Assembly (NCBI GenBank): GCA_937952395.1
Contig: CALFYV010000090.1
Location: 97,408-161,407 of the forward strand
Direction: 5' to 3'
Length of the DNA: 64,000 bases
Origin: an uncultured Bacteriovoracaceae bacterium
GTDB lineage: Bacteria; Bdellovibrionota; Bacteriovoracia; Bacteriovoracales; Bacteriovoracaceae
Shown: in pieces, positions 38,441 through 40,413 of the stretch
Layout of the letters: every line of letters starts with the position of its first letter
Position numbering within the stretch: position 1 is the first letter of the stretch
Notes under the pieces: model-generated
Database searches by the model: none
Told to the model about the DNA's origin: nothing
Seen by the model: the letters and a program-made list of their open reading frames with translations, nothing else
Made by a program: the position numbers and the translations under genes

Positions 38441-38595
38441 TTTGTTGTTTATGTGGCGAAGAAGTAGATGATCCTATAATCGAAGAGCCTTTCTTGGCAA
38501 CTTGTCTTAATGCTCACAAAGAGTGTTGGGAAAAATATAAAATATGGTATAATGAGTACACTAAAAAAATTCCTGGAGTTAAACAGGAAAAATAA
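38437..38595 (+). CDS. Possible 52-aa Cys-rich peptide (below the ORF-track cutoff)
   Basis: ATGA-coupled to guaC. Sequence is MICCLCGEEVDDPIIEEPFLATCLNAHKECWEKY... It overlaps the likely hldE start by 44 nt, so this call is uncertain. Confidence 0.3.
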   Translation: MICCLCGEEVDDPIIEEPFLATCLNAHKECWEKYKIWYNEYTKKIPGVKQEK

Positions 38596-39925
38596 AAAAA
38601 ATATAGCTGTCGTTGGTGATACGTTAATCGACGAATATTATTTTATAGATTCTAATCGTATAAGTCCGGAATTCCCAATTCCGGTGTTTCTCTCCCTTAC
38701 CAGCACTCCAGATATTGTGCGTCCAGGTGGTGCTGGAAATGTTGCCTATCAATTTAAACACTTTAATGTCAATGCTATTCTTTATGGGTTTGCCGACCGT
38801 TATTTTGAAAATCTCGCCCAAGAGCACGGATTAAATATTCAATATATGAATATCAAGGGTTTAGCCTGTCCTATTAAACGTCGTTTTTATTACCAAGACT
38901 TTCCTCTTTGTCGATGGGATGTTGAAGCAAAAAATTATAATATTGATCCGATAGAGCTAAGATGTGGAGAACAAAAATATATTTATGGTAAATGTCGTGA
39001 AGACATTAAAATTCTGTCCGATTATAATAAAGGATTTTTTGGTGAGGATGTTTCTTATTGGCTAAAAGGAACCACTATAGTTGATCCTAAAAAAGGACCA
39101 GCAAGCAAGTGGAAGGGTTGCACTATTTTTAAGCCCAATTTTAAAGAAGCTGAGGAATTAACCGGAACCACAGATGTTGATGAACAATTAAAGATTTTGC
39201 TTAGTGAAACAGATGCTAAATTTGTTGTTATTACTAATGCTGGTGATAGTGTTTTTGTTGGCACAAAGCCGGGTGGCTTTACTTATGTGGGGACACAAGA
39301 AGTAAAGGTCATAAGCAATATTGGTGCGGGAGATTGTTTTGCTGCGATGTTAGCTTTAGCTTATTCTCATGGAATGTCTATAAGCGAATGTGTTGAAGTG
39401 GCTTATGAAGCCGGCTCAGTTTATGTTCAAAAAAGATATAATGAGCCAATTACACCTTATGAGTTATTGTTACATGATGACCCCGTAGCAGCTAAACTGG
39501 TAGACCCAGAAGAATTAGTTGAGCGTGATTTTACATTATGTTTTACTAATGGATGTTTTGATATTTTACATGAAGCTCATGTGGATTTATTAAAGTATGC
39601 AAAATCCACAGCAGATAAGTTGGTTGTTGCTTTAAATACGGATGAAAGTGTGTCACGTTTAAAAGGGGCTGGACGCCCTGTAAATGCCTTAGAAAGCAGA
39701 ATGAAAATGCTTTCTATTCTCGAATTTGTAGATTTTATTGTGTCTTTTGATGAAGATACGCCCTCAAAATTAATCGAATTAATACAGCCTGATATTCTCT
39801 GTAAAGGAGGTGATTACACACCAGAAGAAATAGTAGGGCATAATTTGGTTAAAGACGTACGGATATTTCCGTACGTCGAGGGCAAATCTACATCTGAATT
39901 AATAAAGCAAATTAAAAATAGTTAA
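38552..39925 (+). CDS. hldE: Bifunctional D-beta-D-heptose 7-phosphate kinase / heptose 1-phosphate adenylyltransferase
   Basis: PfkB-type kinase half (VVGDTLIDEY...ISPEFPIPV, GAGDCF) plus a cytidylyltransferase half (TNGCFDILHEAHV). Start at 38552 aligns with the E. coli HldE N-terminus. Confidence 0.85.
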   Translation: MSTLKKFLELNRKNKKNIAVVGDTLIDEYYFIDSNRISPEFPIPVFLSLTSTPDIVRPGGAGNVAYQFKHFNVNAILYGFADRYFENLAQEHGLNIQYMNIKGLACPIKRRFYYQDFPLCRWDVEAKNYNIDPIELRCGEQKYIYGKCREDIKILSDYNKGFFGEDVSYWLKGTTIVDPKKGPASKWKGCTIFKPNFKEAEELTGTTDVDEQLKILLSETDAKFVVITNAGDSVFVGTKPGGFTYVGTQEVKVISNIGAGDCFAAMLALAYSHGMSISECVEVAYEAGSVYVQKRYNEPITPYELLLHDDPVAAKLVDPEELVERDFTLCFTNGCFDILHEAHVDLLKYAKSTADKLVVALNTDESVSRLKGAGRPVNALESRMKMLSILEFVDFIVSFDEDTPSKLIELIQPDILCKGGDYTPEEIVGHNLVKDVRIFPYVEGKSTSELIKQIKNS

Positions 39926-40105
39926 TTATTTGCACACAGGACAATCTTTACAGCCGTCACAAGTGCAGTTTCCATCTTCACAATGGCAGTCTGGGCCGCA
40001 AGTACATCTTGGGCAACAAGAATTGTCTACTGGCTGACATTTGTCACAACAACCAGCAAAAGCCAAACAACCAACGATTGCTAATAGTGATAAAATTGAT
40101 TTCAT
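39926..40105 (-). CDS. 59-aa cysteine-rich lipoprotein-like peptide (below the ORF-track cutoff)
   Basis: AGGAG lies 7 nt upstream. Sequence is MKSILSLLAIVGCLAFAGCCDKCQPVDNSCCPRCTCGPDCHCEDGNCTCDGCKDCPVCK: a signal peptide with a lipobox-like FAGC, and 15 Cys in total. Confidence 0.55.
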   Translation of the reverse strand: MKSILSLLAIVGCLAFAGCCDKCQPVDNSCCPRCTCGPDCHCEDGNCTCDGCKDCPVCK

Positions 40106-40137
40106 AATATTCTCCTAAATGACTATTTTATATAGTC

Positions 40138-40413
40138 ATGGGAAAGAGGCTTTCAAGAAAACAGTTAAAAAAAAGAACATCAAAGAAGTGTTATTTTTGT
40201 GATTGTGATGAATATGAGCTTTTAGATGTTCATCGTATTGTGCCGGGTGAAGAGGGCGGCAAATACAATGATTTCAACACTTTGGTCTGTTGTGCCTTAT
40301 GCCACCGAAAAATTCACTCTAACAAGATTCAAATCTTAGGCAAATATTATTCCACTGCTGGTCGATATATTTTATATTATATAAATGAAGAGGGCAAAGA
40401 AATGTGGGAATAG
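40138..40413 (+). CDS. HNH endonuclease
   Basis: CYFCDC...DVHRIVPGEEGG...NTLVCCALCHRKIH. Confidence 0.8.
   Translation: MGKRLSRKQLKKRTSKKCYFCDCDEYELLDVHRIVPGEEGGKYNDFNTLVCCALCHRKIHSNKIQILGKYYSTAGRYILYYINEEGKEMWE

Follow-up and report, generated by a model that had tools for sequence, protein, structure and literature searches.

A small gene of huge phages for a predicted cysteine-rich prolipoprotein of metallothionein-like composition

Bacterial metallothioneins have been described as cytosolic proteins (PMC7558416, PMC8790569). Csp1 of methanotrophs is an exported copper-storage protein, a pre-folded helical bundle (PMC7558416), and OmcA of the chlamydiae is a 9-kDa Cys-rich outer-membrane lipoprotein whose chemistry is disulfide-based (PMC2811131). 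Among phages, T5 has Llp, a small lipoprotein by which FhuA is blocked (PMC9586334). The literature searched contained no metallothionein that is phage-encoded or lipid-anchored.

The gene described here encodes a 59-aa product that resembles each of these systems in part. With metallothioneins (the vertebrate MT beta-domain, echinoderm MT, SmtA/BmtA and MymT) it shares a Cys content of about one-third, arranged in CxC, CC and CxxC arrays, and a Lys-rich composition with no aromatics, no hydrophobic core and a variable module copy number; unlike them it is phage-encoded and carries a predicted signal peptide and lipobox, known metallothioneins being cytosolic. Csp1 offers a parallel in being exported, lined with Cys and able to store many Cu(I) ions extracytoplasmically (PMC7558416), but it is a four-helix bundle exported by Tat, whereas the mature part here appears to be a 40-residue unstructured peptide behind a Sec/lipoprotein leader. 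OmcA is likewise a small, very Cys-rich lipoprotein with a competing SPase I/II signal and an envelope location (PMC2811131); it cross-links by disulfides in a peptidoglycan-poor envelope, whereas the present family includes leaderless members. Llp and Cor are, as the product described here would be, phage-encoded small outer-membrane lipoproteins from accessory genes (PMC9586334), but Llp is folded and receptor-specific with one disulfide, has no sequence or PHROG relation to this family and is quite different in composition.

The window, meaning the whole 64,000-nucleotide stretch of DNA that was analysed, covers positions 97408-161407 of a 546,147-bp contig within a 3.15-Mb bin of 493 contigs. 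The contig is that of a huge phage, encoding a DnaB-like helicase, topoisomerase II subunits, a split DnaE, the PrkA/YeaH/SpoVR trio and a tmRNA, and it makes up 17% of the nominally "bacterial" bin. The rpoB of the bin is Bacteriovoracia-like and nearest to those of Oligoflexia and Halobacteriovorax MAGs (74-76% identity); it is found on contig C261 (locus L178) as two ORFs, one of 540 aa and one of 453 aa that continues past the locus edge. Binning is weak evidence, and this rpoB only weakly suggests a diderm host of Bdellovibrionota type. DsbA homologues are encoded in the same bin.

The ORF lies on the minus strand at 39926-40105, where its presence and translation were confirmed in the window sequence, the product being identical to the one quoted in the initial annotation. 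At 59 aa it falls one residue under the 60-aa default of the ORF lister. It exactly fills the 212-bp gap between hldE (38510-39925, plus strand, stop at 39925), a bifunctional gene with PfkB and cytidylyltransferase domains, and a 91-aa HNH gene that starts at 40138 on the plus strand, so that it converges on hldE and points away from the HNH gene. GMP reductase, HldE, HNH and small capsid-targeted proteins make up its wider neighbourhood, in which no metal-resistance or metal-transport gene was found. The features of the locus are as follows.

39926-40105, minus strand: 59-codon gene for a small, Cys-rich predicted prolipoprotein (stop codon 39926-39928), recognized from the ORF, its syntenic homologues and BLASTP against L015
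40052-40105, minus strand: predicted signal peptide, residues 1-18 (MK followed by 16 hydrophobic residues), from sequence reading and the aligned leaders of relatives
40049-40060, minus strand: candidate lipobox F16-A17-G18-C19, with C19 the predicted lipidated first mature residue, from a pattern test and relatives
39929-40048, minus strand: Cys-rich part of the mature product, residues 20-59, with 13 Cys and no aromatics among its 40 aa, from composition and spacing
40112-40116, minus strand: Shine-Dalgarno sequence AGGAG, 6 nt before the ATG, from sequence
40127-40156, minus strand: possible sigma-70-like promoter, read by eye as TTGAAA (40151-40156), 16 nt and TATATA (40129-40134), or with 18 nt and TATAAA
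39854-39877, no strand: hairpin with a perfect stem of 10 bp and a loop of 4 nt, lying 49 nt beyond the stop of the 59-aa gene and inside the 3' end of the convergent hldE

Transcription from a sigma-70-like promoter upstream of the gene is possible; the candidate is absent from the output of the consensus scan because its second hexamer lacks T at position 6, and an 8-bp palindrome at 40119-40139 overlaps it. The hairpin at 39854-39877 is unusually stable (z = -4.55, with 0 shuffles folding as well); it has no U-run and for that reason was not called by the terminator scan. It may serve as a terminator or stabiliser of the minus-strand transcript. It falls within the last 25 codons of hldE, where it encodes DVRIFPYV, and a 13-bp hairpin stands at the corresponding place past the small gene of L015, the closest relative. 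Both hairpins may act as bidirectional terminators between convergent genes.

Evidence that the ORF is a gene comes mainly from related loci, collected with the neighbouring HldE as anchor: 13 IMG/VR loci and about 26 phage-type metagenome loci, in which HldE is 40-57% identical. Cellular HldE loci (genome_contigs, at most 35% identity) were uninformative. Of about 23 related loci open to evaluation, 14-15 have a small Cys-rich ORF in this position, with its own Shine-Dalgarno sequence and convergent on hldE. It comes immediately after hldE and is encoded on the other strand in the window and in L002=L019, L003=L020, L004=L022, L005=L023, L008=L009=L028=L031, L010, L011, L021, L024, L030 and L035, whereas in L015 one gene lies between hldE and the Cys-rich ORF. 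A GGAG, AGGAG or GAGG motif precedes the ATG of every family copy by 5-9 nt, in loci that range from 32 to 53% G+C. In composition-adjusted BLASTP the product encoded in the window matches that of L015 at 45% identity (E 4e-8 pairwise, 8e-7 elsewhere) and that of L002 at 6e-8; other significant pairs are L002-L021 (3e-8), L003-L004 (1e-6), L010-L024 (6e-6), L008-L011 (3e-22) and L008-L035 (1e-9), while the window copy reaches L008 and L011 with E values of 0.003-0.007 only. Of the codon differences between L008 and L011 in a 42-codon block, 14 are synonymous and 5 non-synonymous, and this synonymous excess indicates purifying selection on the reading frame.

A chance ORF might be suspected from its shortness and from its absence from a representative library of 1.84 billion proteins and, for most members, from a collection of 15 billion. 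Such an explanation is hardly credible given the synteny, the Shine-Dalgarno sequence in all members, the synonymous excess, and a frame that stays open at 25% Cys codons in a genome of 36% G+C. Six-frame ORFs of at least 30 aa with at least 8 Cys and at least 10% Cys number only 12 in the whole 546,147-bp contig, so the ORF cannot be put down to the background of a 36-37% G+C genome. It is almost certainly a real gene. Eight distinct loci with enough flanking sequence (L007, L012, L013/L033, L017, L026, L027/L032, L036 and L048) are without it, and the gene is therefore accessory and dispensable, carried by roughly 60% of relatives.

Some neighbouring cases are less clear or differently arranged. 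A leaderless ORF in L006 could not be established as a family member, as it gave no significant match. In LR756511.1, a published and unannotated 595-kb uncultured huge phage, a 70-aa ORF convergent on hldE (L259:4390-4602, minus strand) has AAGGAG, a hydrophobic N-terminus and a 12-Cys tail (CACKCGCPTTTCTCGDTCGCKCGCGQTGACNCAK); with a best E of 0.017, which is not significant, it was retained only as a positional counterpart. In L008, L011 and L035 the Cys-rich gene does not face an HNH gene but follows a minus-strand gene for a small protein of the capsid-targeting-leader type, and L008 and L011 carry expanded CCKD/CCEKG repeats with 29-33 Cys.

The leader in the window copy consists of K2, an uncharged hydrophobic stretch of 16 residues and F-A-G-C19, which is the make-up of a bacterial lipoprotein signal peptide, and alignment shows the same design in 11 relatives. 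The sequence AFAG-C19 passes the PROSITE-type lipobox rule ([LVI..][ASTVI..][GAS]-C at residues 15-35), Phe at -3 being uncommon but allowed; IVGC13, judged by eye, stands too close to the N-terminus to be the lipobox. The signal peptide and lipobox proposed in the initial annotation thus agree with the pattern rule at C19 and recur in relatives. Of the 11 leader-bearing members, 9-10 close the hydrophobic stretch with a small or hydrophobic residue, then Gly or Ser at -1 and a Cys, and the leaders are otherwise divergent; the variants are FAGC, AAGC, GAGC, FVGC, ISGC, LTSC, IFGC and LIGC, with L005 (EVYC) as the exception. A competing SPase I site of AxA form is present in the window copy (A-F-A before G18) and missing from most relatives. 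Since only a few members have it, lipoprotein processing is the reading common to the family. The residue at +2 is never Asp among leader-bearing members, which under the sorting rules of Escherichia coli would predict delivery to the outer membrane. The 59-aa product is thus probably exported and lipidated. Two members, L008 and L011, have a longer TM-like N-terminus with no lipobox, and a leader is altogether missing from L035, which starts MSDCCKNC, and perhaps from L006.

The count of 13 Cys in a 40-residue mature part, also given by the initial annotation, holds for the segment after C19, which is 32% Cys and contains 0 aromatics. Pooled over the family, mature parts contain 33.7% C, 15.0% K, 7.9% D, 7.5% N, 6.7% G and 4.9% T, with aromatics at 0.4%. 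Both the window copy and the family pool therefore have the composition by which metallothioneins are recognized, being small, with about 30% Cys in CxC, CC and CxxC and few or no aromatics. Cys counts range from 10 to 33 and are odd in 10 of 15 members, spacing varies, and units of CCKD type are repeated. A conserved Cys pattern, on which the initial annotation had made its proposal depend, is nevertheless present among relatives, which keep their Cys-richness and a C-terminal CxC...CxC..C.C-K motif; the shared core in full is CxC-x4-6-C(C/x)C-x2-3-C-x2-3-CxC-x2-CxC-K. That annotation had left the choice between a Cys knot and a metal-binding peptide. The metallothionein-like composition is in line with the second, whereas the number, parity and spacing of the cysteines all vary, and a cystine-knot or other disulfide-rich mini-protein, which needs a fixed, even number of Cys with conserved spacing, is a poor fit and was set aside. 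The further claim of an echo between this gene and the Cys-rich ORF at 1-1239 extends to composition only (best BLASTP E 0.13); in full that ORF is 505 aa long (C90:97129-98646) with 51 Cys and no leader.

Searches of existing resources returned little. Megablast of the 5-kb neighbourhood against phage records gave no match, and tblastn of the 59-aa peptide and of its longest relative against the same records gave nothing meaningful. Neither the peptide nor the family alignment brought up a homologue in word-indexed searches, a pattern scan of viral contigs was likewise without a match, and phmmer against the 1.84 billion representatives returned 0 matches. For all 15 members, Pfam gave no family at E values up to 10, metallothionein families (the SmtA type included) and OmcA among those covered; NCBIfam gave none even at E 10, and PHROGs none. 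Two of ten members are present in the 15-billion-protein collection, both as unnamed singletons. The family is effectively unannotated. A family HMM run against the genome of origin recovered the query gene alone and is low-powered, presumably as a result of composition correction. Against all PDB sequences the family profile gave four weak matches, three of them metallothioneins aligned Cys on Cys: MT-1A (E 0.48), sea-urchin MT (E 1.6) and the rat MT-2 beta-domain (E 4.4). None is significant, and they are to be read as a resemblance in sequence and not as proof of homology. AlphaFold2, given the 15-row family alignment, reached a pLDDT of 55 and thus no confident fold, the outcome that an apo-thionein would lead one to expect.

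Two further proteins of the same phage, both encoded outside the window, touch on this chemistry. In a 142-aa ORF at C90:240357-240785 on the plus strand (locus L176:2001-2429) the part after the signal peptide is extremely rich in His and Cys (HRHHRHHSCCHHRHGHGCHKHHGCCHHGCHKHHGC...CHCHNCHCGDKCHDKCHNHKCHNGKCKL), and the product looks like a secreted metal-binding protein. On the minus strand at C90:255279-255863, a 194-aa protein is anchored by an N-terminal TM segment and carries, beyond a Pro-rich linker, a thioredoxin fold with WCGYC, the active site of DsbC type; it is possibly a periplasmic thiol-disulfide oxidoreductase; a separate cytoplasmic thioredoxin (CGPC) is encoded at C90:231567-231908. 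The CGYC protein could keep peptides reduced or shuffle disulfides, and is compatible with both a metal and a disulfide reading of the small lipoprotein.

The reading we prefer, held tentatively and with slightly less than even confidence, is that the gene is an accessory huge-phage gene for a lipid-anchored, metallothionein-like polythiol peptide that binds soft metals in the envelope. The product would be synthesized behind a Sec-type signal peptide that closes with a lipobox, and because of that lipobox the Lgt, LspA and Lnt of a diderm host would be expected to acylate Cys19 and remove the leader, so that a peptide of 41 residues would remain, tethered to a membrane and exposed to the periplasm. 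Such a peptide, with no hydrophobic core, one-third Cys and Lys, Asp, Asn and Gly between the cysteines as in metallothioneins, would most likely need soft metal ions (Zn2+, Cu+, Cd2+), bound in thiolate clusters, in order to fold, and might act during infection as an envelope-tethered metal sponge or buffer.

Metal-thiolate chemistry itself, taken as a separate claim, is plausible while falling somewhat further short of an even chance. It is favoured over fixed disulfides by the metallothionein composition, the lack of a hydrophobic core and the odd and variable Cys counts. The leaderless L035, which is syntenic and linked to L008 at 1e-9, adds to this, because its module has to function in the reducing cytoplasm as well and could be structured there by metal binding alone. 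The separate secreted His/Cys-rich protein of the same phage argues in the same direction. Against metal-thiolate binding stand the oxidising periplasm and the DsbA homologues of the bin, since a Sec-exported polythiol would meet DsbA, as well as the lack of a metal gene nearby. Against a metallothionein in particular stand the lack of significant similarity to any metallothionein family in Pfam, NCBIfam or the PDB and the cytosolic location of the bacterial metallothioneins so far described (PMC7558416, PMC8790569). The dispensability of the gene, missing as it is from eight related loci, also weighs against the preferred reading.

The most developed alternative is a disulfide-based envelope protein, oxidised by DsbA into intra- or intermolecular disulfides, which would either cross-link itself or host envelope proteins in the manner of OmcA or act as a thiol/disulfide sink that disturbs oxidative folding in the host. 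Predicted export into a compartment with DsbA homologues fits this explanation, as does the phage's own membrane-anchored thioredoxin-fold protein with its DsbC-type CGYC, and the odd Cys counts would favour intermolecular bonds. OmcA has a second Cys right after its lipobox Cys, as does the predicted lipoprotein here. The two also share the design of a small lipoprotein (PMC2811131). On the other hand, the leaderless syntenic L035 cannot use disulfides, Cys spacing is not conserved, and none of the 15 members matched the OmcA family in Pfam, so that we consider a disulfide-based protein rather unlikely. Less probable still is a small lipoprotein of the outer membrane that obstructs a receptor or an entry step and so excludes superinfecting phages in the manner of T5 Llp/Cor, with Cys and metal merely stabilising a tiny fold. 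The size class and lipid anchor are those of Llp (PMC9586334), and the gene has the marks of a moron, lying on the strand opposite to its neighbours with its own Shine-Dalgarno sequence, a possible promoter and a hairpin, and varying in presence among relatives; but PHROGs shows no similarity to the Llp/Cor families, and the wide variation in length and Cys number, together with TM-anchored and leaderless forms, is unlike a shape-specific binder. Receptor masking is possible, but the sequence variability does not suggest it.

Two other functions are far less probable. A small Cys-rich peptide with a leader might be the ribosomal precursor of a RiPP or bacteriocin-like product, secreted to act on other cells; the leader is instead a classical signal peptide with a lipobox rather than a RiPP leader, and neither a maturase, a radical-SAM enzyme nor a transporter lies nearby, which makes this explanation very unlikely. 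An o-spanin, the Rz1-like outer-membrane lipoprotein of the lysis machinery, would also be a lipoprotein with a mature part of about 40 aa, and Cys residues do matter in Rz1. The gene is neither embedded in nor next to an i-spanin, holin or endolysin gene, as a lysis cassette would have it, its product is Cys-rich rather than Pro-rich, and leaderless forms exist; of all the functions considered, we regard this one as the least credible.

Whatever its function, the gene belongs to an undescribed, conserved small-gene family of huge phages with what appears from its sequences to be a new architecture, in which a lipobox or TM anchor is joined to a metallothionein-like module. This conserved family escapes both gene callers and composition-corrected homology searches, and none of its members has been named. 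A broader proposal, more speculative than the preferred reading for the window copy, is that the family represents a fast-evolving polythiol module, lipid-tethered, TM-tethered or cytoplasmic according to lineage, that may control the availability of envelope Cu/Zn or the thiol redox balance and thereby constitute an extracytoplasmic metallothionein. If this were true, it would be the first lipid-anchored and the first phage-encoded metallothionein. Binding of metals by the peptide would mean that metallothionein-type chemistry is used outside the cytoplasm in bacteria and that phages manipulate the metal and thiol chemistry of the host envelope, both of them undescribed in the literature searched. 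Engineered Lpp-metallothionein display constructs have been built for metal bioremediation, and a natural lipid-anchored peptide of this kind would mirror their design.

Other small Cys-rich products are encoded elsewhere on the same phage contig. At C90:280257-280430 on the plus strand (L175:2007-2180) a second peptide of 57-59 aa, with 10 Cys and the lipobox LTVGC, repeats the architecture of the 59-aa product, but at E 0.014 its homology is not significant and it was not accepted as a member. Directly after it, at C90:280434-280862 (plus strand; L175:2184-2612), is the gene of a 142-aa lipoprotein (LMCGC). Near the far end of the contig, at C90:539356-539697 on the minus strand, a 113-aa ORF combines a signal peptide with a CxC-rich C-terminal tail (CENCACVSCKCLDKKCSDQCRCKNE).
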